From: Paecilomyces variotii
Taxonomy: Eukaryota
Assembly: GCA_004022145.1 (NCBI GenBank)
Contig: RCNU01000009.1
Direction: 5' to 3' (one strand)
DNA: 26,813 nt
Part shown: positions 299 to 21,483 of the stretch, piece after piece
Layout: every line of letters begins with the position of its first letter
Position numbering within the stretch: the stretch's first letter is position 1
Notes under the pieces: model-generated
Database searches by the model: none
What the model saw: only the letters and a program-made list of their open reading frames with translations
Told to the model about the DNA's origin: nothing
Translations under genes and position numbers: made by a program

Positions 299-741
299 TC
301 TAGGATCCCGCGAATAAGTGGTTATTCCCCTTTAGGTTTGGTACAATTTCTGCCTACAAGTCAAGTTGTAGACTTAGTGAGATGAATAATAATGTACAGT
401 ACCTTTTTTGCACTGCAAGCTATAAGGCTAAAATATTGAAGTAATTTAGATTTATTTTCGTACACTCAAAATTGTAATCAATAGTTATCTAATCCTTTTT
501 TTTTATTATTATCATTAACTAAGCCAGTCACCTTGTACATCAGTGCTCAAAGCTATTAACTAGGTAGCTCACTCAGTTATTCGTACTGCCCCGCCTGAGC
601 CCACTTACAACATAACTTGCGGGAAGCTTCACTCATCAAACCTGCCATTTGCTTCAACCACTGAAAATACTTCTGGTTTTGGGCAGATACTCTAGACCAG
701 AGAAGATCACCCCTCTCTTCTTATCTCATACTCAAGTCACC

Positions 742-3384
742 ATGGGGAACTGCCCTCACATCAATGCACCAGGTATGCTGAATCTTACCCCGCCTCTTAT
801 CCACCATCGTTGACTGAGATTAATGTCCTCCCTTTAGAACTAAAACCGCCCCAGCCATCGCAGCACGTCTATCGAGAGGAATGTACCCAATGCTTCGATT
901 CGGTTGTACGTACGCGACCTAAACACAGCTGATCCGGGATTGCCATAATTCAGTGTGCTTAATTGTGACAGGATAACCCCTCAGGTCTTAACGTCTGCCT
1001 CCACTGTTTCAACGGTGGCTGTTCTGACGACCGAAACCATGCCTCTCTTCATTACACGCGCTCAGGACATCCTCTGGTCTTGAATATAAAGAGATTACGG
1101 AAGAAGCTCCAGGTTGGTCTGCATCCAATACTCAAAATATCTCCCATATCTAACAGTCTAGCGGGATGAACCTCCACATAAGATTTCCAAGCTCGCCATT
1201 GCTGCAGAAACGGAAGAAGATAGGTATGAGACTATTACCAGCGTGCTTTGCTATGAATGCAAGGAAGAAAACATCGACAAGGTTTCTGGGAAACTTCCCA
1301 GTGTGATAGACGGAATCATGAAAGCCCTATCCTTCACCGAACGCGAGGAGATTAAAGCATGGGAGCAGGAGTTTGTGCCATGTGAACACACCTTGTTACT
1401 CCAGCAGCAGGAAGGCAGGAAAATCGAGTCTACAGGTAATAAGGAGTACCCTTGTCTTATACTGCAAGTTACTTATCTACTATTTAGATCTCACCCACTG
1501 TTCTATGTGTGACTTGAAAGAAAATCTTTGGCTCTGTCTCGAGTGCGGCAATCTTGGCTGCGGTAGAAGCCAATTCGGTGGCGTGGGAGGAAACTCGCAT
1601 GGTCTTGCGCATGCGAATTCTAGTTCTCATGCTGTAGCTGTCAAACTCGGCTCCATTACGGCAGATGGCTCGGCAGATATTTATTGCTATAAGTGCAATG
1701 AAGAACGGACGGATCCTGAACTTGCCTCCCATCTCGCTCACTGGGGAATAAATATAGCCGAACGGGAGAAGACCGAGAAGAGTCTTATGGAAATGCAAAT
1801 CGAACATAACATGAAATGGGAATTCTCGATGACAACCGAAGATGGGCATGAGCTGGAACCAATTTTCGGTCCCGGTTTCACCGGGCTCAAGAACCTCGGG
1901 AATAGTTGTTATCTCTCAAGTATCGTTCAATGTCTACTAGCTCTGCCGGAGTTCCAGGACAGGTATTATCATCCGCAATCAGATCCGCCTGAGTGCGCCT
2001 TCCCGGCGGAGGATCTCGAGACGCAAATGCGAAAACTGGCGGATGGGATCCTTTCAGGCAGATATTCGGGCCCTGAGACGAACATAAACGCCACGCCAGA
2101 TACTCCAGAAGTCCCTCACCAGAAAGGTCTACCGCCGGCAATGTTCAAACATCTGGTCGGTCGAGGCCACGAGGAGTTCTCTACTATGCGACAGCAAGAT
2201 GCTTTCGAGTTTTTGCTTCACCTCTTCAAGCTTGTCAGCTTATCTAGACATCCAGAACACCTTACAGACCCTGTACGGTCTTTTCGCTTTGTCGTCGAGC
2301 AGCGTCTGCAATGCCTGTCCTGCAAGCGGGTGCGTTATAGGCTCGATGAGCAGGACAACATCTCCGTTTCCGTACCTGCACGTCGCTTGCCTCCCAATAC
2401 CTACCCCTCTGAAGGATCTGAAACCGACCAATTTGAGTCTGTTACCCTAAAGGAATGCTTAGACATATTCACATCTGAAGAGACAGTTGAGCTAAAATGC
2501 CCTGCTTGTGGAAGTAATGACGGCTTTCGCAAGCGCTCTATGTTCAAGACCTTGCCCCAAGAACTGGTCATCAATGCGAGGCGTTTTGAGCTGGTAAATT
2601 GGGTTCCTACAAAACTAAACATTCCAGTTCAAGTCAATGAAGATCCGCTGGACTTCAGCAACTACCTGTCTCGTGGCCATCAAGAAGACGAAGAACTTTT
2701 GCCTGACGAAAAGAGCGAAGCATTCACTGCAAACCAGGAGGCGCTCGACCAGCTCATGAGCATGGGCTTCCCACGCGTGCGAGCCGAGAAGGCACTTCAT
2801 GCAACCGGAAACGCTGATGCGGAGGCTGCTATGAACTGGCTGTTCGCTCACATGGAAGACCCTGATATTGATGAACCATTGGTCCTTAATCAAGCCACGG
2901 CCGACCATGGTGATTTACAAGACCCAGAGAAGATTACACAACTAGGGGAAATGGGGATAGATGCACGTCGCGCTAGGAAGGCACTCGCGGCCACAGATGG
3001 TGATATCAATAGAGCGGTGGACTGGGTTTTCAGTCACCCCGATGATTCGGACAGTGCAGATAATGGCGCAATCAGCCCAGTATCAAATTCTGGAAAAGCG
3101 CGGGAAATTCCCGGGTCCGTTGATACTCCCGCTCAGTATCAACTTCGGTCTATAGTCTGTCACAAAGGCAGATCGGTCCATGCGGGGTAAGTTCAGTTCC
3201 CTTATATGTATCCTAAGGTCTATTACTCACCTGTCCTAGACACTATGTTGCCTTTGTCCGAAAAACTATACCTGGAGAGAGTGGCTTATCCTGGGTACTC
3301 TTTAACGATGAAAAGGTGGTTAAAGCACATGATATCGAGGAGATGAAAAAGTTTGCGTATTTGTATTTCTTTAGTCGTGTCTAG
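742..3384 (+). CDS. UBP14: Ubiquitin carboxyl-terminal hydrolase 14 (USP5/USP13 family), 785 aa; exons 742-772, 838-905, 972-1112, 1162-1435, 1488-3186, 3240-3384
   Basis: Five GT-AG introns join into one open frame (2358 nt). Domains: N-terminal ZnF-UBP variant ([24 protein letters not shown]), ZnF-UBP ([25 protein letters not shown]), Cys box ([13 protein letters not shown]), QQDAFEF, two UBA domains (LMSMGFP, LGEMGID), and a His box split by intron 5 ([23 protein letters not shown]). Confidence 0.96.
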
Positions 3385-3523: not shown

Positions 3524-3625
3524 TGACAAGGGTGGGATTCGAACCCACGCCATTTTCATGACACGGAATATTATGGATCAGGTGAAACCTGAACCGTGCG
3601 CCTTAGACCACTCGGCCACCTTGCC
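3524..3625 (-). tRNA. tRNA-Leu(CAG) with a 20-nt intron (3568-3587)
   Basis: Minus strand: GGCAAGG TGGCCGAGTGGTCTAAGGC G CACGG TT CAG G [intron] T CCGTG, long variable arm, GTGGGTTCGAATCCCAC CCTTGTC A. Acceptor, D, anticodon and T stems pair. Anticodon at 3591-3589; the intron follows position 37. Confidence 0.95.
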
Positions 3626-5611: not shown

Positions 5612-8600
5612 TTAATCTAGACTTACTAAATTAGTTAATCTTAATTAATCTAAGAATCTTAAGAAGTTTATCTTTAGCAATAGTTTAGTAAAACTATTTA
5701 CTATTATATCTTATATTTTAATAAACTTAATACTAATTTTATTCTTTTAATATAGGTTATATATATAATAGTATATAATATTAATATACTTTAATCTCTT
5801 ATAGATATAGGTATCTCTAATTAATAATAATAATGCTTAGTTATCTTTATAAACCTTAACCAGAGAATTAATAATAAAAGCTTATTCTTTTCTTATTATT
5901 AGTTTAAATTTATTTAGATTAATATAGTGCCTATATCTTATATCTCTTAAAAAAAAGGCTAATTATTAGGACTGCTTTATAGCTTAATATATAGCTATAT
6001 ATTTAGCCTCTATAATTAAAGTTATAACAGACTTTTATTTCTTACTTAATTAGCTTATTAAGCTATTAATTAAAATAAAAATATTCTCTAAGATTAATAT
6101 CTAATTAGTCTTATTTATTATATAATCTAAGTCTAAATATTTAATAAGTTACTAATCTTAATTTATATTAAACTTAAGACTAAGATATATAATTAATTAT
6201 AAGTATCTTATAAGAGACTTTAATATTTTAAAATATCTTTTAAATAGATCTAATAAATATTAACTTAATCTACCTATTATAAATATAATATCTAGTCTTA
6301 TTAAAATTATTAAATAGATTAGGCTATTAATAATCTTTTAATATTCTCTTTAGTCTATTTTTTTATTTTAAGGGCTAAATAGGTTTAGAGAGTTATATCT
6401 ATTTAATAAGATATTAACTAAATATACCTTCTTCTTACTTATTTTATATTATAATAAGAGTTCTTTAATATAATAAGATTAATCTATTATTAATATTTAG
6501 TCCTTTCTATTCTAGGTAATTTAAATATTAAAAATCTTCTTTACTTCTCCTAAGTTCTTTATCTTATATATTAATCTAAACTCTTATTTAAACTAATAAA
6601 TATTCTCTATTTGCTTTATATTAATTAAGATATTATTAATATATACTAAGAGTAAAATCCCTTTTTTTAAGTGCTATAATAAGCACAGATTAATATTAAT
6701 CTATATAAAACTTATTTTTTAAAGTATTTTTATACAGGTTTAATTTTAATTCTTTATAACCTATTTTAGGCTATATAAAAATTAAAGAACTTTTAATATT
6801 ATTCTTAGTAATATATTTATTTCTAATAAAGGTACTATATAAATCTTCTTCTTTAATATTAACTTTATAAAGGTATTATTAATATTTATAATATAATACT
6901 TATAATCCTCTATTATAATAATAGCTAAGAATATTTATAGCATATTATATTATAAAATAGGAGTAAAAATATACTTAAAATTAATACTATATTTCTAAAT
7001 AAACCCTTAGGTAATAAGATATACTTTAAGCTTTTAAAGAAAATTATCTAAGTTATACTTTATAGCTAATACTTAATAACTAGTTATAATATTAGCTCTT
7101 AATAGTAATATAATTACTTTAAAAGTTTTATTTACTTAAAATATATCTATTTTAGCTTTAAATATATTTTACTATAATTTATTCTAAATAGGGTTATTAA
7201 TTATAGTATAATATAAGTTTAAGATTAAAATATACTTCTTTACTATATATATTGCTATTATAATATTTAATACTTATTTTATATACTTCTCCTAGTCTAT
7301 ATTAATACCCAGAGGTAAGAGATTTAGTATAAATATTACTTAATATAATTTCTTAGTATCTTATTTATTATTTAGTAATTTAACTTTCTCTCTTTTATAT
7401 TTTGCTATATAGGGGATCTTTATATAAGATATAATTTATTTATTTAGCGGGGATAAGGAATTTATTTATAAGTTCTTATAATTATTTAGATTATTAGAGT
7501 AAGAATAATTAAATATCTTCTCTTATTCTATAATTTTACTATAATAAGATATTTTAATTTCTTTTTAATAAAAAACTTCTTTTTTTTTAAAAAAAAACTA
7601 AAACTTTTTTATAATTCTTCTCCTAATTTTTAATATTATTCTTCTTTTTATTTAAGAGTATATATATATTTAAGGTAATAGATTAAGTTACTAGTTAATC
7701 TTTTAAATTTTTTATTAATACTATATTTAATAATAATCTTTAAAGAATTTTAAGATCTAGATCTTTTTTTAGTTTATTTTTAAAAAACTTAGCTTAATAA
7801 GTTTTAATAGTCTTTTTTATATATAAAGCTTAAACTTTTTATTATTTATTTATTCTCTTAATATATCTTATAAAAATATAGATTTTACCTTAATCTATTA
7901 ACTTATCTCTCTATATATCTTATAATAAAGATTCTGGGTTTATATATAATATTGCCTAATATCCTTATACTTTTAAATAATTAATTAATAGCTTAACTCT
8001 AGTAAAAGCTTTCTCTAGAGATATCTAAACCTTATTAACTATTAGTCTATTTAATACTCTATTTCTAATATATATATATTAGTTTAAGCTATCTCTACCT
8101 ATAATTTAATTAAAAGGTTTAAATTTTTAAATATAACTTTTATTTCTTTTTTAATAATTTAATATACCTATTCTATAGCTTTATTTTATATTAATATATA
8201 TAGAACTATTAGTTTATAATAAATATTAAACTATTTCTTCTAGGTCTTAAAAAGATTCTTAAGTTCTAGTATATTATCTAATTATATACTAAGAATTTAA
8301 AGACCTATTATTATCTTAATCTTCTTTTTTTATTTATTTAAGATAGGGGCAATATTAGATTTAGCTCTTATTAAAAATATCTATATTTTTCTTAAAAATT
8401 ATTTATAACTATTAAAAAGTAAATATATTTATCTTTAAACTTTAGTATTTAACCGCATATATTTATATAAATAAGTTTAAGAATACTAACCTTTTATATA
8501 TTAATAGTCCCCCTTTTATTTCTAATATTAGCTATAGTATATATTATATACTAATAGTTTATTATTATTTTAATAAGTTTCTTTAATATAGTTAAGTTAT

Positions 8601-10323
8601 ATAAGTTTTTAACTTTTTTAAGTTTAAGATAGCTAATTCTCTTATATTATAATTAATACTCTTCCTTAATTTTATTTTAATAAAATAAGGGAATAATTTT
8701 ATTTTAAAAAAATTCTTTCTCTTAGTTTATAATTATAATATTAAAAGTATTTTTAACAGATAGTAGTATAATAGATATATATTATAACTTTAATATTTAG
8801 TCTAAGAAGACTCTTTTAATAATATAAACTCTATATTTAATAATATCTTAAATTATAATCTTATCTAACTTATTTAATATAAATATTATTCTTTTATTAA
8901 AATACCCGCATATATTTAACTACTAGTAGAATATCTTAGTTAATAAGAGATTTACCCTAAGATTTAATATAAGTAATATATTTTCTAAGTTTAACTTCTT
9001 TCTATTCTTATTTTTTAAAATAGCTATCTCTATATATTTTAAATATAGGATCTCTTTACCTATATAGATATATCTTTATTAAATTTAAATTAATAATCTT
9101 CTAAAGTAATAATTCTTATTAATTATATATAAATTAATATTACTATTTATATACTATTAAGATAAATTCTTATTAATAATATCTTTTAAAAAATAAATAA
9201 TTTTATATAAGATTTAGTTATTAAAAATAATTAAAGTTAAGGATTTTAATTAAGATTAGCTTTTTTTAGAGTTTAAGGTTTTTTCTGCTTTATATACCTT
9301 ATATTTTCTATTTTTTAATCTCTTGCTTTTTAAAAATTAAACCTTTTTATAAAGTTTAGTAATTAAGTTTATTATCTTTTTATCTTAGATAATAGGACTA
9401 TTAAATATTTATTTAAGAAACTTCTTTCTTTATCTTTAACTATCTCTTATATTTTTTTAAATAATAAGTAAGAATAAGCAGTCTTTAATATAATAATCTT
9501 TCTTATAGATATAATATTTAATTAAGGTTTATTTATTCTTAATAAAGAATATAATAATTAGCTTTACTTAAAGTTAGGCTTCTACCTTCTTTAAAATACT
9601 TAAGATTTTATCTATATTTAGGCTTATTTATATATTAATTGCTATTCTAGTAATAGTATATTCTTTAAATAAGGCTAAGAGTAATTATTAAATCCTGGCT
9701 TTAAATTCAGCTAAAAAAGATATATTCTTATTATATGCTTTAATTTTCTTCCCTATTAGGTTTAATTATCCCTAAATATTTAAAATTATCTATCTAGGGG
9801 TTATTTAAAATTATATATATTATTAGATAAGCTAATATTTCTAAGTAAAGAGGGATTATTTATATTTTATTTATAGTCCCTTTTATAGATTCTTTATATT
9901 AGATAAATCTATAAAATTCTCTTAATTACTATTTAAAAGATATTTAATAATCTAATATTATATAATTATATTAGTCTTTTTAAATATCTTCTTATTCTAG
10001 CTTTTTTTTTTTTAGATAATTTAATAGCGTCCCAGTAATTCTTATTAAGAAGCTATTTTTTTATATATAAGAACTATATCTTATAGTTCTCCCTTAAAAA
10101 AGTAAAAACTAATTTATCTCTTTTATTATTCTTATCTTTTATTAAAGATATAATAATAATAGGTTAATTTTTTAACCTTTAATAAGATTTAATTCTTATT
10201 AGGTTTAGTGCTTAATATAGTATTAGAATAGTCTTATTATAGATCTTCTTATATAAGAATAGCTTATTATTACTAGTTTAAACTTAAATATTTAAAATAA
10301 AATAGTTTTTACTATATAGCTAT
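5612..10323 (-). pseudogene. Copia gag-pol polyprotein relic (5' limit approximate)
   Basis: Minus-strand translations: ISLEKAFTRVKLLINYLKV*GY (integrase C-terminal, ~8020-7960), LYSLK* (LYGLKQ, ~6775), GILLLVYINNI (YVDD, ~6640), DN*A..KRLKYINIIYYY..IVNSFTKLL (RNase H DNQA..RSKHID..ADGFTKPL, ~5845-5680). Confidence 0.88.
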
Positions 10324-10358
10324 TTCTCCTAAGTTATTATAAACCTAGGCTTATAACT

Positions 10359-10630
10359 AATTAAAAAGAATAGGTTTAGATAAAATTCCTAGATTAATTT
10401 AATAGCTTAAAAGGCTAATAATACTTAGGGAAAAAGAGTATTAGCATATATAATAGATATAAAGTATCTCTATATATTCTTAGTTAAGGTAATAGATTTT
10501 TTATAAAGCTTAAGAAGTAATTTCTTTAAGCTGCCTAATTTTATCATAATAAAATTATTCTTAAAGATTTCCTTAAAGCAAAATCTTAGTTATACTAGAA
10601 TCTGCCAGTTCTAACTGCTATTTCATAATA
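10359..10630 (-). repeat. 5' LTR of copia element A
   Basis: Direct repeat of 5333-5604. Begins tattatgaaa (RIPped TGTTATGAAA) on the minus strand and abuts the PBS-like motif. Confidence 0.9.
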
Positions 10631-10635
10631 TAGTT

Positions 10636-10746
10636 AATATTAAAACTAGCTATAAGATCTCTATTTAATTAATTTAAACTAAAATAAGCTATTATAAATA
10701 AGCTTAATAAATAAGATATAATTTAAAGAGCTTAAATCTAGATTAA
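10636..10746 (-). mobile_element. Gypsy LTR fragment, part 2, between the two copia insertions
   Basis: Reverse complement of ~12803-12913. Confidence 0.8.
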
Positions 10747-12341
10747 AGTTAAAAAGAATAAGTTTAAATAAATTTCTTAAACTATTATACTAGCTTAAAT
10801 AAGTATAATACTTAGAGAAAGAGAATATTAGCTTATAGTATAGATATAAAGCTATATCTTTAATATATATTCTTTAAGATAATAGAATAGTAAAAAAAGA
10901 AGCTTAAGAATAAATCTTTTTAAATCTTTAATTTAATTATAGTAAGATTATAATAATTATATAATTTTTAATTTAATTATAGTAAGAATATAATAGTTAT
11001 ATAAAGTTTTAACTATTATTTTATAATACTTCTCTTTAATTTAAACTTATTATATTAATTAATTCTAGCTAATTTAAAAATCTTAAGAAGTTTATTTTTA
11101 ATAATAGTTTAATAATAGTTTAATAAAGTTATTTATTATTATATTCTATATTTTCGGGATATAGCTCGGCCCCGGCTAGGCCGAGGTATATGCCCCTATA
11201 TTTTAATAAACTTTATATTAATTCTATTTCTTTAATATAAGTCTTATATATAGTAATATATAATATTAATATATTTTAACCTTTTATAAATATAGGTATT
11301 TCTAATTAATAATAATAATATTTAATTATCTTTAAAGACTTTAACTAAAAAGCTTATAATAAAGGCTTATTTCTCTCTTATTATTAGTTTAAATTTATTT
11401 AGACTAATATAGTATCTATATTCTATATCTTTTAAAAGAAGAGCTAACTACTAAGATTATTTTATAGCTTAATATATAGCTATATATTTTACTTTTATAG
11501 TTAAGATTATAATAAATTTTTATTTTTTATTTAATTAGCTTATTAAGTAGCTAGTTAAAATAAAAATATTCTCTAAGATTAATATCTAGTTAGACTTATT
11601 TATTATATAATTTAAATTTAAATACTTAATAAGTTATTAGTCTTTATTTATATTAAATTTAAGATTAAGATATATACTTAATTAAAGATATCTTATTAAG
11701 GATTTTAATATCTTAAAGTACCTTTTAAATAAATTTAATAAATATTAGCTTAATCTATTAACTGTAAATATAATATTTAGTCTTATTAAAATTATTAAGT
11801 AAATAAGGCTATTAATAATTTTCTAATATTCTCTTTAACTTATTCTTTTATCTTAAGAGCTAAATAGCTTTAAATAATTATATCTATTTAATAGAATATT
11901 AATTAAATATACCTTTTCTTTATTTATTTTATATTTTAATAAGAGTTTCTCAATATAGTAAGATTAATCTATTATTAATATTTAGTCTTTCTTATTTTAA
12001 ATAATTTATATATTAAGAATCTTTTTTATTTCTCTTAAGTCCTTTATCTTATATATTATTTTAAACTGCTATTTAAATTAATAAATATTCTTTATTTACT
12101 TTATACTAATTAAGATATTATTAATATATATTAAGATTAAAATTTCTTTCTTTAAGTATTATAATAAATATAGATTAATATTAGTTTATATAAAACTTAT
12201 TATTTAAAGTATCTCTATATAAGTTTAATTTTAATCTCTTATTACTTATTTTAAGCTATATAAAGATTAAAAGACTTTAAATATTATTTTTAATAATATA
12301 TTTATTCTTAATAAAGCTATTATATAAATTTTCTTCTTTAA
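10747..12341 (-). mobile_element. Second, diverged, 5'-truncated copia copy (3' LTR 10747-11028, RNase H and C-terminal RT)
   Basis: 11029-12341 is colinear with ~5605-6856. The LTR shares the start agttaaaaagaataagttta and the end ttttataata with the element A LTRs. Homology stops inside RT. Confidence 0.88.
11155..11195. mobile_element. 41-bp minimal derivative of the 14844-21483 TIR element, with 9-bp TSD
   Basis: ctatatttt (11146-11154) | cgggatatagctcggccccggctaggccgaggtatatgccc | ctatatttt (11196-11204). The paralogous copia position (~5711-5719) has a single ttatatttt. The sequence is identical to both ends of the large element. Confidence 0.92.
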
Positions 12342-12626
12342 GATATTATTAATAAACTATTAAAATATTACTAGTATTTCTATTAAGCTAAATAATATTA
12401 TTAATAATTTAAATAAGCTAAATTAAGTATAGAAAATAATTAGATATTCTTATCTTTTTTTAATATAAAGGTTATTAAATATAAAAATAATATTAATCTT
12501 TATAAAATACTTTATTTCTTTTAAATTATTTAAGATTTTCTTAATTAAAGATAAAAGGTATTAATCTTTAATAATTATTATATTTAAAGCTTAATAATTT
12601 ATATAGATTTATATTTCTTTATTAAG

Positions 12627-14330
12627 TATTATAATACTAGTATAAAAGATAAAAGAGTTTTAAAGAAAGCTATTTTAAGGTATTTTAATAAGATAATTAA
12701 TTTATTAGCTAATACTTACTTAATCTAGAAGAGTAAGGTTTAAACTTTTTTAAATTATATAAAGAATTATATAATTTTATAAAGATATCTTTAATATATA
12801 GCTTAATTTAAATTTAAGCTTTTTAAGCTATATCTTATTTATTAAGCTTACTTATAATAGCTTATTTTAGTTTAAATTAGCTAAATAAAGATTCTATAGC
12901 TAGCTCTAGTATTAATTACCTTATTTTATTTATTTTAACTTACTTCTTAAGCCTATATTTTAATATTATATAGCTCTTTATTTAGGAGTTAATATTATTA
13001 ATAATATTTACCTTAATTTCTTTATTTCTACTAATTATTTTAAATAAGTTTATTAAATATATTATTATTAGCTATAAGCTAGAATAATATAAATATTATT
13101 ACTTAATATATAAATATATTAATAAAGCTAAGACTATTATAAATAAAATAAGCTATTAAGCTAAAATATACTTTTAAAAATTTTGATAAGAATTTATTAT
13201 TATTTAATAAAAACTTAAATAAAAAATTATTAAACTTAAGACTATTTAATAATATTAGAAAACTTAATTTTAAAAAAAGAAATAATAGTATATTTAAGCT
13301 ATCTTTAAAAGGAATTAAGCTTATTATATAATTATATTTATTATAAATATATCTTTATTTATATTTAAACTTAAGCTTAATATTAAGAGACTTATAATTA
13401 TTTTAATAGAAATATTTAAAATATTTATTATTATATTTTCTTTTACTCCTAGACTTTTAAAATAACTCTTAGATTTAAATAAATTTAAAGATAATTAAAA
13501 GAATCTTTAGTATTTTATAGCTTAAATCTAAAGAAAAATAATAATTAATTAAGATTAATTTTTAATTTCTTAAAGCTATATAGCTTATATAATTAATTAT
13601 TTAAAGAATATATCTTATATTTAAATATTACTTTATATTAAGAATAAAACTTATACTCTTAATAATTATTAGGAGATTTTAAATATTTTAAAGTATATAT
13701 TTAATAACCTTAATTATATAAATAATATATATAATAAGTTATTTAATCTTTATTAAATTAATAAGGAATTTAAAATTTTTTTTATTAAATTTTAGCGCCT
13801 AGTATTAAAAAGAGAAATATTTAAAGAAATATTATTTATTTTACTTAAATAAGCTATTAATTAAAAATTTTAAGAAATATTATTATATAATTAGTCTTTA
13901 AGCTATAAATATTATTAATTTATTAAATTTCTATAAGATCTTAAGAATTATTACTATTAGTATATTATAAATTAGCCTTTTATTATAAAAATTTATACTA
14001 TTATTTTAAGATTTATTTAATATATTTAATCTTTTTTATTTATTTTAAATCTTATCTTTATTATAAGAATTAATAGCTAGCCTTAAAGAAATTTAATTTA
14101 AAAAGATAAACTAATCTTAATATAATAATATAACCTTATAAATTTAAATATATTTAAATATTTAAATAAAAGAGAATATAGCTTATTATATTATAAAATT
14201 AATATTTATTTTTATTATAACTTCTTAAAATATTATATTAAGAATTATTTATATTTAGATAATTATTAGAAGATTTAAATTATAGCTATATATAAACTCT
14301 ATCTTTAAACTCTTTAAATAATTTAGTTCT
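12627..14330 (+). mobile_element. Ty3/gypsy retrotransposon fragment: 5' LTR (ends 12965; start uncertain, 12627 or ~12344) plus gag; pol not seen
   Basis: The LTR end is defined by the inverted copy at 5281/10746; a gag relic follows immediately. Confidence 0.8.
12992..14330 (+). pseudogene. Gypsy gag relic with CCHC zinc knuckle
   Basis: One frame reads RLLK*LLDLNKFKDN*KNL*YF..SYIAYIINYLK..FFIKF*RLVLKREI, de-RIPping to [46 protein letters not shown]. A DPMDL-like motif lies near 14135, and CX2CX4HX4C spacing (TGT/CAT>TAT) at 14207-14248. Confidence 0.85.
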
Positions 14331-14843
14331 TAAACTTATATTAATATAGAAAAGGCACTAATAAAGAGGATAGTATAAGAAGCTATATAAGAACTTAAAC
14401 TATAAGGTATAACTAAGTATAGAGAATAGAAGTATTATAGAATAATCTAGTACTATATAAATAAAACTATAGTATATATTATATTAAGAAATAAAGAGGT
14501 ATTAATCTAGATATATAATATAGTTAAGAGAATAGGCTAACTATAGTTTTAACTATATAATATTATTATATAATATAGTTATAAATTCCTTATAATATAT
14601 AATTAAAGCCTAATATTAATATTCTCTACTAATATTAAAAAGAAAGAAAAGAATATAATAAATATTATAAATTAGTACTAATAATAGGAGAGAAAAGATA
14701 AAAGAAAGATAATTATAAAAATATATATAAATCCCTTAATAGTAATTATTTTTTAGGCTTAAATTTATAGAGATTATATTATTAACTAAATATATAAGAA
14801 TAGAAGTAAATATTAAGATAGAAGTATTAATATTATACTTTTA

Positions 14844-14883
14844 CGGGATATAGCTCGGCCCAGCCGGGGCTAAGCTTAGCCTA
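14844..14883 (+). repeat. Left TIR
   Basis: CGGGATATAGCTCGGCCCAGCCGGGGCTAAGCTTAGCCTA vs reverse complement of the right end GGGCATATACCTCGGCCTAGCCGGGGCCGAGCTTAGCCTA (34/40 match). Confidence 0.9.
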
Positions 14884-15441
14884 TCTGAAAAGCTCAGCCT
14901 ACCTAAGAAAAATCTAGGTTTAGCTCAGACACTAAGTTAGTTTCAGTATAGCATTTAGGTAGGCTTAGCATATATATAACTTATATAACTTATAATAAAG
15001 TTTTTATATTATATTGCAGTAAACTATATTTATTAAAAATTATATATAGTATATGCTCTATGCGTATTACAGCATATATTAAGTATAGGTTAAAGTAATA
15101 TTGGGATATATATAGGAAGCTAAAACTGATATTATTCTGTATAGTTTACTAAGGCGGTATATATAAAGGCAGTTATTAAGTATATGCTAAAGTAATATTA
15201 GAATCCTGTTATATAAAAGTTTATATTATTTATATTATTTTTAACCTCCTTAATAATGCCTTTACCTTGCCTTTATAGTATTATAGTCCACTCTCTTATA
15301 TTATTATTATATAATTATAAAAATACTATTATATTTAAAGGAATTCCTTATTTATAATATAGTTTTATTAATAGATAATCTAATAAACTATAAGTATTAC
15401 TATAGTAAGTATATTTTTACTTAATATTAAATATATACTAA

Positions 15442-16230
15442 ATAAAAATAGGCCTAATTCCTAATCTAAATCTAATATAGATCCTAAACTTATATACTGC
15501 AGCTAAGCAGGAAAATAAGAAATTTAATAAGCAGATATTGCGTATATGCTAAAAGCGCGCTAAATATAGATAGTGCCTATAATTATTATTAAGAAAAATG
15601 CCTATATACTAATCTTTAAGTTTTCTATTTTAAGTATAAATAGGAATATATAAGTCTTTTTTTTAAAATTAACTAAGTATATACTAAGCTTCTATAGTTA
15701 CTAAGTATAAATAAATATAAATAGCCTATTTATATGCAGCAAGGTTATTAATTTATAGCCTGCTATAAGTCTGATATAAGTTTTATATATATATAATATG
15801 CTGATAATTAAAGTTATAATATTATATAAGGACTATATACCCGGGGGCGAGTATATTATTATCCTTAATATATATTAGATATATATTAATCTGCTATAGC
15901 ATTAAATTATAATATAGAGACTAATAATATAACTATAAATAAAAAGATAATTAGGCTATAATAAGTTTAAGATCTATTTTATATATATTAAAGCTATGCT
16001 AATAATATATAGTACGCTAATTAAATATATTTTACTTAGCAAGTAGTAAGATACTGATTTTATTTATAAATTATAATAAGTCTTAAGCATATATAAAGCT
16101 TATATTAAGATAATATTTCTTCTAGTATAGGAAGTATACTAATTAAGGATATTACTATATTTTATAAAAAAATAGCTTATACTAATAATAAGTTTAGAAA
16201 CAGCTATAAGAGCTAGTTTTATTAAAAAGT
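15442..16230 (+). pseudogene. Possible second gene relic inside the TIR element, convergent with the transposase; product unknown
   Basis: One plus frame keeps protein-like stretches (LYTAAKQENKKFNKQILRIC*KRAKYR*CL; GLYTRGRVYYYP) and ends at a GTAAGT donor near 16229. No family recognised. Confidence 0.3.
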
Positions 16231-17350
16231 AAGTTTAATATATATTAATATATAAATAGGATCTATATGCTATCTTTTTTATTATTTATATTGCTATTTA
16301 TATTATTATTTATATATAACTTATAACTCTTAGCAGGCTTTTTAGATATATTTAATATATGCCTAATATTAACTTTAACTAATCTTAGCCTTTATTCTAG
16401 TATCTTATACCTTTATTAACTCTGTCTCGCAAGCACATAGTAAGTATACCCCTACTTATATTATATATATATTAACCTTATATAAATTAAAAATATCTTA
16501 TTATTATAAGATAATAATAATAGAAGTAATAGTAAATAGCCTTTTAATTTATCCTATATATATATTAAACTAGATTATAATATAAATCCTGCCTCAACTC
16601 TATTAAAGCATAGATAGTCTATATCTTATAATAAATATATAAATAGATATATTACTAATAAAGAAATACTAACTAAATTAAAATATAGTTATACTTATAG
16701 TTATAACTATAAATATCCTTATAGCACTAATAGCCGCAGTGCTAAGTCTACTAATAAGTTTTTCCCTTTTATATATAGAATATATGCTAAGTTTATATCT
16801 ATAAATTATAATCTTTTTTTTTAAGAATAAGTTTTCAGAGGCCTTAAATATATAAATATTTAAACTTAGCTCTCCTCTAAGCATATGCTTAATACTAAAC
16901 TTTGGTTTAATATTAAGCTCTTATACTTAAAGACTGTTTTTCTATATCTTTAAATAATTATAATATAATATTCTTTATTTTTTTATTTATTCTTATTGTA
17001 GGGGAAAAAGAAATATATATATATATTTATTATATAACTATAGCTATATAAATATATATATTTATTATATAAACTGCTATAATAATCCTTCTCTTTCTTA
17101 CTTAAATTCTTATTACCTTTACTTTATTATTTCTCTTAATTAAATAGTAAAATTAGTCTTTGTTATTTCTTTTAATAAGGGTCCTCTGCTATAGTATATA
17201 TAAGCTCTATTTTATCTAGAATTTATATTTAACTCCTAGATAATATATGCCAGATATAGAATTAGTATATACTTTAAATTAGAACTAGCAGAGCTATTTA
17301 AATCTAATAAAGGGGTTTAAACCCTTTTAAGTATTAAAATAGTATTAAAT

Positions 17351-18025
17351 TAAACCTAGCCTTAAATATAACTAAAACCTTTAAATCTACCCCTTCCTTA
17401 ACTTCTGTTTAGTATATACTCTTTACTTAATCTATATTAAGAAATATAATCTGAGTCTGATTTTTTAGAGCTTAGCTTAATCTACTTAGTCTTAGATTAA
17501 ATCTGGCTTTAATAATAACTAGAATCTTTAAGTCAACCCCTTTCTTAATCTTTATTTAATATATGCTCTATATTTAATCTGCATTAAGAATAATAATTTA
17601 AGTCTAATTTTTTAGAGCTTAGCTTAGTTTATTTAATTTTAAATTAAACCTAGCTTTAATAATAACCAAAATCTCTAGGTTAACTTCTTTTTTAATCTTT
17701 ATTTAATATATGCTTTATATTTAATCTGTATTAAGAATAATAATCTGAGTTTAATTTTTTAGAGCTTAGCTTAGTTTATTTAGTCCTAGATTAAACCTGG
17801 CTCTAATAATGACTGGAACCTCTAGGTCGATCTCTTTCTTAATCTCTTTTTTAATTTTTATTTAATATATACTCTGCATTTAATCTATATTGAGAATAAT
17901 AATTTGAGTTTAATTTTTTAGAGCTTAGCTTAATCTGCTTAGTCTTAGATTAAACCTAGCTCTAACAATAACTAGAATCTTTAGGTTAACCCTTTTCTTA
18001 ATCTTTGTTTGGCATATATTCTATA
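17351..18025 (-). repeat. 147-bp tandem repeat, ~4.5 copies, probably a coding 49-aa repeat
   Basis: Units start at 17351, 17498, 17645, 17792 and 17951. The anchor agagcttagctta lies at 17467, 17614, 17761 and 17920 (spacing 147, 147, 159). Confidence 0.9.
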
Positions 18026-18239
18026 GATATTTTATTTTTAGCCGGTATATATTTAGTAAAAGGTTTAAATAAAGATATTAAAACAACCTTAAAATTAGCA
18101 TCTTTATTAGAAGATTGATTATTACTATTATTTAAAGATATATTATAGGGATTATTAAGATTAAATAATAAATAAGATTAATTTATTTAATAATTAACAG
18201 CTCTTTAATTCTATTAGTCTAAAAGATATATTTAGCATA

Positions 18240-21200
18240 TATTTAAAGGTATATTAAACTTTTATCTTATTATTTCTCTATATTTATTAGGAGATCTATA
18301 TAGTATTACTATAGTTTCGCTATATATTATTAATATTATAGCTAAAAAGCTCTTATTATTTAGTAATATTTTCTATATATTATTATAGACTAAATATAAA
18401 TTAGCCTTATTAGTATTTAATCTATGCTAGATAGATATTAAATATATATTAAATATAAATATATTATTAAATAGCCCCCAATAAAGATAGGTTTCTCCCT
18501 ATATTATAATTATCTTAGAAGTGACTATTTTTAGATAATCTAGTATACTTTTGAGTATAACTCTATTATTTAAAAGAGATTTTTAATATTTCCTGTAATA
18601 ATATAGTAAGAATCTATAATTTTATTTTATTTTAAAGCTATTTTTTAGTATCTGGATATTCCTTACCCTATTAATATATAGTTTGAAGGATTTCTTAGTA
18701 AGAATATAAATCCCATAGATATTTTAATTAATAGATAAGGGGATAGAATTTTTTAAACTTCTTATAAAAATTATATTTAATATATGTTTAGCAGAAGATA
18801 AATATATGCTTAAGATATTTTTACTAGTTAAAAGAAGGATAAATAGAATATAAGTAGTTACTAAAGCTTAAATATATTTAGCATATATTTTGTATTTATT
18901 AAGATAATACTAATTAGGTGCTTATTTTTTATATATATCTATAGTAACAGTCTATATCCCTTTTTTATTTAAAATATGTGCCTATTAAATATATTAATAT
19001 ATAGCTTATAATAATATTTGAAATAATAATTTAAATATTTAAAAATATATATAATAAGTTTATAGAGAGATAAAAGTATAGCAATAGGTATTAATTCTTA
19101 ATATAAAGTTAGTATATACTAAATATATAATAAGGAGAAGTTAAATATATATCTAGCTTTAGAATTCTAGCTTGAGATTAAAAAGATATTTATATTTCTA
19201 AGTATTATTTTATAAGCTAAATCTATTTTAAGATATTTAGCTTTTATAAATGCTTTTATTTAAATATTTATATAATAAATAATAATATATTCTCTAGTTT
19301 TATTAATATTAACTGTATAAATCTATTATTTATTACTTTTTTTGCGTTAGTTAAACTTATACTCTTATATAATCCCTATATAATATTAGTATATATAAAA
19401 TATATAGTAAGAATAGATTCTAATTAGTAATATCTAAACTAAATAGGTATTGCAGAAGTTTTTGTTTTTAAATTAAATAAATAATTTTATTCTTAATATT
19501 TAAAGAAGCTCTAATTAAATTTAAAGCTTAACCTTAATACTTTTGCTTAAATATATATATTTTAGGAGATATTAAGAATTTATCTATAAGTATCTGGTCA
19601 GCATATATAAAATATAGGCTTAAGGTATATATAATATATATGTAGTTATAGTAAGAATATTTTCTTAATTAATTAAATCTATAAGTTCTTAAATAAAATT
19701 TTAACTCAACTTAGTTAGTAATAGAGGAAAATATATATAATCTTTTTAATAAATAAGAAGGATAAAAAGAAAATAATCCTAATTATAAAGAATAAAAATA
19801 TTAATTAAAGCATTATATTCTTTATATAGGACTTTAGATATACCTTAAGAATAGTTGAATCTTAGACCTATAGTTAATATATGCCTAATATATATAGAGT
19901 AAATACTTACTATAAATTATATGCCTTAAAGTAGTATAGTTAATATAGGTATAAGTAAATTAAATAGGAGTATTAGTATTATATATCTTATAAGCTACTA
20001 AGGTATATAAATAAGGTATATAAATTTAAGCTATATATATAGAGATAGCTTATATAGTATATTATAGTTTAAAATCACTTATTAATAGGCAATTAATAAA
20101 GGTAACTAATAGCTAAGAATATATTTAGTATATGCCGAGATTAAATATAGAGTTAAATTTATTTTATACTATTTAAAAATTATTAGAGTTTGATTTAAAT
20201 ATATTTATATTTTATTTTCTAGATAAAAACAATGCCCTGCTAATTATTAATTCTAAAAATAAAGAAATCTATTATACTAATTTTTAGTTTTTTTTTTAAG
20301 AAATTTATTAGTAGAAGTAATATTGGATATATAGCCTATTTCTTTATAAAGTATTTTAAAGATATTTGGTTTAATATAGCTATATTTATAGTGTTATCTA
20401 AGTATATGCTCTAGTATATACTCGCAATATTTAATACCGCTGTATTTATATGCCTGATAATATATCTTGCTTTAAATTTTATCCTTTTTATCTTTTTAAA
20501 GAAGTAGAAGAGATAGGGTTTTATAATTGCCTTAAGTATAGAGCCTAAACTAGATTTAAGCTATATTTAGCATATGCTTATAATATATTAAATATCTGCT
20601 TAAGATAAGGTATAGATATATTTTTAATAAAAATTGTTAAAATATTTAATAGATATTTATATTAAAATAGTTATAAGATAAAGGATTTTTTTAGTAAATA
20701 AAATATAAGATATTATTAAAATAAGTTGTTAGATATTTAAGAATAAATAACTTATCCTAAATATTATTAATTATAATCTCAGAGATACTATTACAGCTAA
20801 TAATAATATTTATAAAAAAATAATCTCCTAGATATATTTAGTATATGCCCTGCTAGAACTTATATAAAAAAAATATATTTAATTAAATCCTATATAAAGA
20901 GGAAATTTAAGATATATCTTAAATTTTTTATTTTTGCTTTCTATATAGGAATAGATATTACTTTAATTACTTATTATATCCTTAAACTAGTTTAAATATG
21001 CTTTATAAAGGTTATAGTTTTATATAAGTTTGCTCTATAATAAATTAGCATCTAGTCTAAATATAATAGATATTAAGTATATACTCAGCATCTACTAGGC
21101 CTCTATAGGAATTATATTAATATACCCGGATAAGAATATTATATAGTTATTAATTAAGAATGCTATTAATTTGGCTATTAATTATAGTTATTTAATTCTT

Positions 21201-21260
21201 GGCTATTTTTAGGTATTTAGGGAAAAAGTAATAGTATTTAGCTTTATATTAGCTATTATA
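18240..21260 (-). pseudogene. Intron-containing MULE-like DDE transposase relic (ends approximate)
   Basis: In order on the minus strand: YSGIKYCE (CSGVKxCE, 20444-20421); YIYFPLLLTK (HTHFPPPPTK, ~19735); LKIDLAYK (D1, 19223-19221); GI*TVTIDIYKK*AP (D2, 18939-18937); HIFIFC*TY (CxxH, 18793-18782); KYTRLSKNSHF (E codon GAA>AAA, 18532-18530); GRNLSLLGAI. Blocks are separated by intron-sized gaps. Confidence 0.82.
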
Positions 21261-21443
21261 TATATATATATTATAAATTTTAAAGAGTTTTATTGTATAA
21301 ATATTATTATTAATTCTTAGATGGGCTAATCTTATATTAATTATACAATTAGCTTATGCTGAGCTTATACTTAATCTGTATATAAGGTGGGTTGAGCTTA
21401 ATTTAGCTAAGGATGAGCTTTAGGGTGGGCTAAGTTCCTAGAG

Positions 21444-21483
21444 TAGGCTAAGCTCGGCCCCGGCTAGGCCGAGGTATATGCCC
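21444..21483 (-). repeat. Right TIR
   Basis: taggctaagctcggccccggctaggccgaggtatatgccc; inverted match to 14844-14883. Confidence 0.9.

Follow-up and report, generated by a model that had tools for sequence, protein, structure and literature searches.

A 41-bp remnant made of the two ends of a putative Mutator-like transposon, probably left by a single deletion at a microhomology in a fungal repeat island

The window, i.e., the whole stretch of 26,813 bp analyzed here, corresponds to positions 1302001–1328813 of contig C86 in a 30.1-Mb fungal assembly of 86 contigs. It contains, at about 741–3382, a gene that we take to resemble a ubiquitin-specific protease. An intron-containing tRNA-Leu(CAG) gene on the minus strand (3524–3625) lies at the border between gene-rich DNA and an AT-rich repeat island: from about 3650 onward, GC content is 9–27% and the sequence is a nest of RIP-degraded repeats. 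The features relevant to this study are the following.

5711–5719, plus strand: empty paralogous target in copia copy A, from alignment of the paralogous sites
10354–12356, minus strand: the host, copy B of a RIP-degraded copia-type retroelement, found by self-comparison, with approximate limits taken from the match to copy A
11146–11154, plus strand: left copy of the 9-bp target site duplication, CTATATTTT, identical to 11196–11204 and present as a single copy in 20/20 paralogues
11155–11195, plus strand: 41-bp ends-only remnant of a long, putatively Mutator-like element, identified by sequence match and single in the genome
11155–11172, plus strand: left tip, element positions 1–18, equal to 14844–14861, the match stopping at exactly 18
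11163–11195, plus strand: right tip, the last 33 bases of the element, equal to 21451–21483, the match stopping at exactly 33
11163–11172, plus strand: 10-bp junction microhomology, AGCTCGGCCC, with no base added or changed, also found at 14852 and 21451
11196–11204, plus strand: right copy of the 9-bp target site duplication, CTATATTTT, identical to 11146–11154
14844–21483, minus strand (orientation of the transposase gene): 6640-bp RIP-degraded member of the parent family, full-length, without target duplication and with 118 bp of host sequence missing beside it
14844–14905, plus strand: left TIR, about 60 bp, with a subterminal motif repeated at 14852, 14873, and 14891
17340–18025, minus strand: 147-bp tandem array in the transposase tail, a 49-residue RGRP-rich repeat according to translation and copy comparison
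18470–19844, minus strand: putative MULE-like transposase catalytic region, broken by many stops and in several frames, matched in tblastn by the intact relatives P0001, P0002, and P0005 (E down to 4e-22)
21420–21483, minus strand: right TIR, about 60 bp, with the motif facing outward at 21451–21460 plus inward-facing copies

The host is of the copia type, since paralogues of the insertion site adjoin RVT_2 matches, about 0.25 kb away, on five contigs (C10, C20, C24, C51, and C56); the window's own copy is absent from the 21 RVT_2 matches. A preliminary description of this DNA had reported a perfect 9-bp duplication around the insert and an empty paralogous site in copia copy A. Both observations hold, and the second extends well beyond the window: all 20 aligned paralogous sites, namely 19 loci (the best-scoring of 70 matches) and the copy A site at 5711–5719, are exactly 50 bp shorter than the site of the remnant. 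These empty paralogues show that an insertion took place here and generated a 9-bp duplication.

The insert consists of two overlapping tips, which accounts for its length (18 + 33 − 10 = 41 bp). The identity of its first 18 and last 33 bases to the ends of the 6640-bp element was recognized in the preliminary description and is exact, as is the overlap. The window contains the 10-mer AGCTCGGCCC exactly three times, at 11163, 14852, and 21451, always on the plus strand, which confirms that the two ends of the element carry it in direct orientation. Both terminal motifs are kept in the remnant, and only about 5 bp separate its two 18-bp arms. The hairpin that it was said to form is real (−14.4 kcal/mol, z −4.5, with 0/200 shuffles as stable), but it follows from the TIRs and only restates the inverted-repeat nature of the two tips.

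Two families in this genome share such ends. The long family has 11 copies with both ends (6.3–7.0 kb), plus several partial copies; its TIR arms are 76% complementary over 59 bp, and the same ends are found in 10/10 aligned copies. Target duplications of 9–10 bp flank 10 of the 11 full copies (nine perfect, one with one mismatch), the copy at 14844–21483 in the window being the only one without. Next to this copy, 118 bp of host repeat are missing by comparison with four of five paralogues, as in an adjacent deletion. Adjacent deletions are known for Mutator, and one-sided loss of flanking DNA is typical of transposase activity. The second family is a MITE of the 519-bp type (16 copies, 501–520 bp, 97% uniform), with target duplications of 9–10 bp in 12/16 copies. 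About 64 bp at each of its ends are shared with the long element at 79–88% identity. Its interior cannot be aligned to the long element by blastn, and its autonomous partner may be another family. The 41-mer shows no difference, at any of its 41 positions, from two long copies (the window copy at 14844 and a copy on C44); every MITE copy differs from it at 1–3 positions on the left and 2–5 on the right. This comparison supports a derivation of the 41-mer from the long family and not from the 519-bp MITE.

Protein comparisons indicate that the parent is a divergent Mutator-like (MULE) element, though not a typical MULE, the transposase class being shown for its relatives and assigned to the parent by homology. 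A profile built from 11 natural copies, with X at the stops, retrieved 24 relatives at E ≤ 0.001, and a second region matched P0005 with a probability of 96%. Similarly, the language-model feature neighbors of the relative P0021 are MULE-type clusters, and the top five Foldseek matches of the predicted model of P0005 (pLDDT 71) are to ISCth4 (E 5e-4 to 2e-3, TM 0.28–0.29), presumably an IS256-family transposase. The C and H of the CxxH motif are conserved in the alignment. The parent has the traits expected of a MULE: TIRs, a variable 8–10-bp duplication, and, by homology, a DDE transposase of the Mutator/IS256 type with CxxH. Pfam MULE PF10551 gave no match in the genome, in the six frames of degraded copy L066, or in the nine intact relatives, and word-seeded protein searches using the RIP-degraded alignments found nothing. 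AcademH, a candidate on account of the 9–10-bp duplications, was rejected, since the relatives are MULE-like and no helicase domain appeared in six frames, a search that is weak on RIP-degraded DNA. In the long element, the leftmost 2.2 kb (window 14900–17100) match neither the transposase relatives nor Pfam; a second gene is possible there.

The parent resembles Muta1 of Aedes aegypti (PMC5499845, PMC5225508) and the maize MuDR/TED derivatives (PMC9569675) which, according to the accessible parts of these papers, have duplications of 8–10 bp, a DDE transposase with CxxH, TIRs made of a short, imperfectly palindromic terminal motif and subterminal repeats, and many truncated non-autonomous derivatives. 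It differs from these elements in lacking a Pfam MULE match, in its 9–10-bp duplications and RGRP-rich repeated tail, and in that all copies seen are RIP-degraded. Repeat slippage or repair is visible elsewhere in the family, where one of the 16 MITE copies has lost 18 bp between subterminal repeats, and the length of the 147-bp tandem array varies between copies. In fungi, Hop is a comparable Mutator-like element.

Differences among the 6.6-kb copies are almost entirely transitions (679–873, versus 1–9 transversions, in the 14 pairs listed), and the affected context is that of RIP, with 72% of scored sites changed at CpA and 67% at CpG versus 20–23% at CpC and CpT. All full copies are about equally diverged (87–90%), each by about 11% from the others. 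RIP nevertheless largely spares the tips, even amid RIP-degraded flanking repeats: the outer 60 bp of ten full copies have 42–67% GC versus 17–26% in the interior. Over the 41 positions of the remnant, these copies carry 0–8 changes and the remnant one, at 11178 (TG to TA), which is common to 7/10 full copies. It had been proposed that the insert escaped RIP by being too small to trigger it. This explanation is unneeded, since the ends of full copies are GC-rich too. The available portion of PMC12543289 mentions no size threshold for RIP. Dating of the deletion relative to RIP was attempted and abandoned, as their order cannot be read from one change in the remnant against 0–8 in ten full copies.

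The 41-mer is single in this genome. Allowing up to 3 mismatches, the exact sequence was found only at this site in 30.1 Mb, which was also the sole match, again with up to 3 mismatches, of a RIP-tolerant pattern of 34 places. A gapped pattern for remnants of 33–63 bp returned this site alone and one for remnants of 37–97 bp, passing through the central motif, returned none in the genome, with the caveat that the patterns could overlook remnants whose fixed letters have been heavily changed by RIP. A right-end pattern gave 71 genome matches versus 27 in a reversed control. With a limit of 2 mismatches, 34 matches are retained: the remnant itself, 15 long copies, 16 MITEs, and 2 distant relatives. 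The other 37 have 3 mismatches and are either left ends or, seemingly, chance matches. Unpaired end matches on C2 and C12 were considered as further remnants and rejected, the first being a lone end of a distant relative (L257:900–960) and the second a relative of the MITE (L258:330–950) that is older, free of RIP, about 620 bp long, and damaged at its left tip, both in GC-normal DNA. None of the 16 MITE copies has collapsed to its ends. The preliminary description had proposed a genome-wide search for the 41-mer, with many copies as support for a recurrent product and a single one as its refutation; the search returned one.

The same search bears on a second proposal, that of an ultra-short mobile MITE which arose elsewhere and was inserted here in its 41-bp form. 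The 41-mer is indeed short and non-coding, with TIRs, intact terminal motifs, and a perfect target duplication, and, in yeast, one terminal motif and one subterminal repeat per end were sufficient for Muta1, though with 315 bp between the ends (PMC5499845, accessible text). However, neither a second copy at an independent site nor a donor is present in the genome, and the arms lie only about 5 bp apart. We consider this origin very improbable. Because so few base pairs separate its 18-bp arms, the remnant most likely could not be synapsed by transposase and never moved.

That the assembler created the junction, by fusing both ends of one full element through the 10-mer, is equally improbable. 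The site does belong to a repeat island, and the matches listed include neither a read nor a contig that crosses the junction. However, 11 full copies, each about 11% different, were resolved with matching duplications, and a 10-bp overlap is far below what assemblers use. Of 24 public runs listed, 20 hold part of 10200–12200, the best share being 0.74. Four runs were compared over 10000–17000 at 90% likeness, a comparison in which paralogues swamp the matches. Three isolate runs probably share the locus, since they contain pieces of 143–240 bp that match copia B or the long element with 0–1 differences. Among the 32 pieces listed of a much longer, paralogue-swamped set (17,550 more), none bridges 11155–11195. 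Similarly, the 15 joints listed of 69 include neither a 50-bp skip at the site nor a join between 41-mer and element; the joint 11115–11197 in run X15 bears paralogue letters, and X15 and X16 show loose ends at 11163, as the right end of any full copy would produce.

The position of the junction leads to the properties of the ends themselves. In shuffling trials, independent 40-bp ends shared a direct repeat of at least 10 bp in 5/3000 cases, and the repeat between the two ends is thus beyond chance for independent ends. When a shuffled end was compared with its own reverse complement, 179/3000 trials reached 10 bp; a built-in repeat is therefore not rare for a TIR pair. The earlier inference that a quasi-palindromic TIR provides built-in direct repeats is well founded, as the motif is found in both orientations at each end and the junction falls exactly there. 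The further idea of a fixed 41-bp outcome does not stand. The inferred pre-RIP ends contain, besides the 10-bp repeat that leaves 41 bp, two exact 11-bp direct repeats, derived from a palindromic subterminal motif at positions 24–39, which would equally leave remnants of 62 or 80 bp; none was found. The repeat giving 62 bp is the longest shared repeat in 4/10 present copies, and the exact 10-mer is found at both ends of 3/10 full copies today, in addition to the inferred pre-RIP ends.

These repeats are the basis of the hypothesis that dyads in the TIRs program a recurrent collapse to fixed scars, seen once here, in a eukaryotic counterpart of the Tn10 process with the role of solo LTRs. In its most developed form, the putative transposase-binding motifs, palindromic within the TIR, would act as deletion points at which copies in different strains shrink again and again to fixed scars of 41, 62, or 80 bp, for as long as the repeats survive RIP; transposon bodies would be removed in this way. 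The exact placement of the junction and the persistence of the 10-mer are consistent with this hypothesis. In addition, one remnant against 15 long right ends is not a negligible proportion, and RIP, which ruins the repeat in most copies, would halt later collapse; low-frequency recurrence may be compatible with the survey of one genome. Against it, this genome offers a single case, compared with 15 right ends of long copies and 16 of MITEs, no collapsed MITE among 16, and none of the 62- and 80-bp scars that the two longer repeats predict. We therefore regard recurrent collapse as unlikely, and its elaboration into deletion points acting across strains as no less doubtful.

The interpretation that we favor, with good confidence, is that the remnant results from an internal deletion that happened once, the ends being joined at a microhomology, and that it is immobile and without function. 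The proposal of a microhomology collapse is thus borne out for the deletion itself, given its clean 10-bp junction, and not for recurrent or fixed collapse, of which there is one instance. A long member of the family would have inserted into an already AT-rich copia relic, generating the 9-bp duplication, and the insert at 11155 would thus have been long originally; its interior would then have been lost once, the tips being joined at the outermost 10-bp direct repeat. Among the matches listed from the four public runs, no allele carrying a long element at this site appeared. As to the route, the element could have been excised, gap repair from the sister chromatid then being aborted and the ends annealing at the microhomology. 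We prefer this route, by a narrow margin, to slippage during replication or the repair of a break inside the element, because imperfect 60-bp arms 6.6 kb apart should pair poorly. Gap repair after excision, with deletion at microhomologies of 6–8 bp, has been proposed for mosquito MITEs (PMC3814204, accessible part). According to the available text of PMC5499845, Muta1 cleavage forms hairpins on the flanks and frees the whole TIR; the tips at a donor site must therefore be recopied or never removed. In yeast, excision of Muta1 from sites with donor duplications was precise in about 90% of cases (in the part of PMC5225508 available), so that repair leaving a remnant would be a minority outcome. 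Where donor duplications were absent, up to 13 bp of TIR were occasionally left (accessible text of PMC5499845 and PMC5225508). The deletion may have come after the RIP-type change at 11178, in which case the parent would already have been dead and the excision route is weakened; once hit by RIP, the parent would depend on transposase supplied in trans.

A related scenario specifies where the excised element went: it would have left 11155 and reinserted 3.6 kb away at 14844, the donor site being repaired to the 41-mer. The two sequences have the same orientation, the neighbor is one of only 2/10 full copies identical at all 41 positions, and it shows the one-sided loss of 118 bp of flank. However, the C44 copy matches equally well, the neighbor has no target duplication, and the even divergence of the copies (87–90%) leaves no post-RIP move visible. 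Such a local hop is therefore unlikely, if slightly less so than recurrent collapse.

A deletion of this kind, joined at a microhomology, has precedents. Nearly precise excision of Tn10 was reportedly described by Ross, Swan and Kleckner in 1979 and by Foster et al. in 1981. Its remnants are reportedly about 50 bp long, and its route is slippage across the paired terminal repeats. Inverted repeats inside the element and copy choice play a part in the process (PMC5991714, PMC12524634) which, as far as the accessible text of these papers goes, removes nearly the whole transposon between short direct repeats that arise from inverted repeats within the ends, keeping the tips and the 9-bp duplication. 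The remnant shares this geometry: its junction lies at a dyad-made direct repeat, and both tips and the duplication are retained. However, the Tn10 process is bacterial, recurrent, and measured, and is helped by long IS10 arms, whereas the present case is fungal, with imperfect TIRs of about 60 bp and one event. In eukaryotes, Gnome, Elf, and Goblin derive from Ozma by internal deletion at 6–8-bp microhomologies, ascribed to gap repair and MMEJ in the accessible part of PMC3814204. Unlike the remnant, which consists of tips only and has not multiplied, they kept internal sequence and multiplied, Gnome to at least 116 copies (same source, in part). Miniaturization at microhomologies is thus a known kind of event in eukaryotic transposons, with a Tn10 precedent for its geometry. 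A limited open-access search for fungal counterparts, ends-only excision relics, and P-element footprints returned no matching publication, which is not proof of absence.

Solo LTRs are common and arise by homologous recombination between long direct repeats. The remnant had been likened to them, as a short relic between target duplications. However, its repeat is only 10 bp, its product is single in 30.1 Mb, and its length is not fixed, as the predicted 62- and 80-bp alternatives, neither of which was found, indicate; the analogy does not extend to a recurrent scar. The remnant is instead an extreme case of a DNA transposon reduced by microhomology deletion, and shows that relics of this sort can escape repeat annotation because they are so short. 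If the junction recurred in other strains, transposon load could be shed by a route set by the design of the TIRs, and such recurrent scars, if real, would record lost insertions in a datable form, as solo LTRs do.

Some minor observations concern the ends of these elements. In metagenome contigs, the right-end pattern had no match and the left-end pattern at least 122; in 80 of these loci, ARAGORN identified 68 tRNA-Pro genes. The start of the MITE, over 18 bases, is identical to the 5′ end of a bacterial tRNA-Pro, a likeness taken as chance. In a long copy on C57 (L072:1–4926), the left 2.8 kb are inverted and abut the interior at about 4713, so that the left tip faces inward, toward sequence of the same element. 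Finally, two MITE copies in opposite orientation on C27 (27239–27757 and 42973–43491) both lack duplications. The 10 bp to the right of one equal the 10 bp to the left of the other, which suggests an exchange or inversion between the two copies; the remaining two flanks differ.
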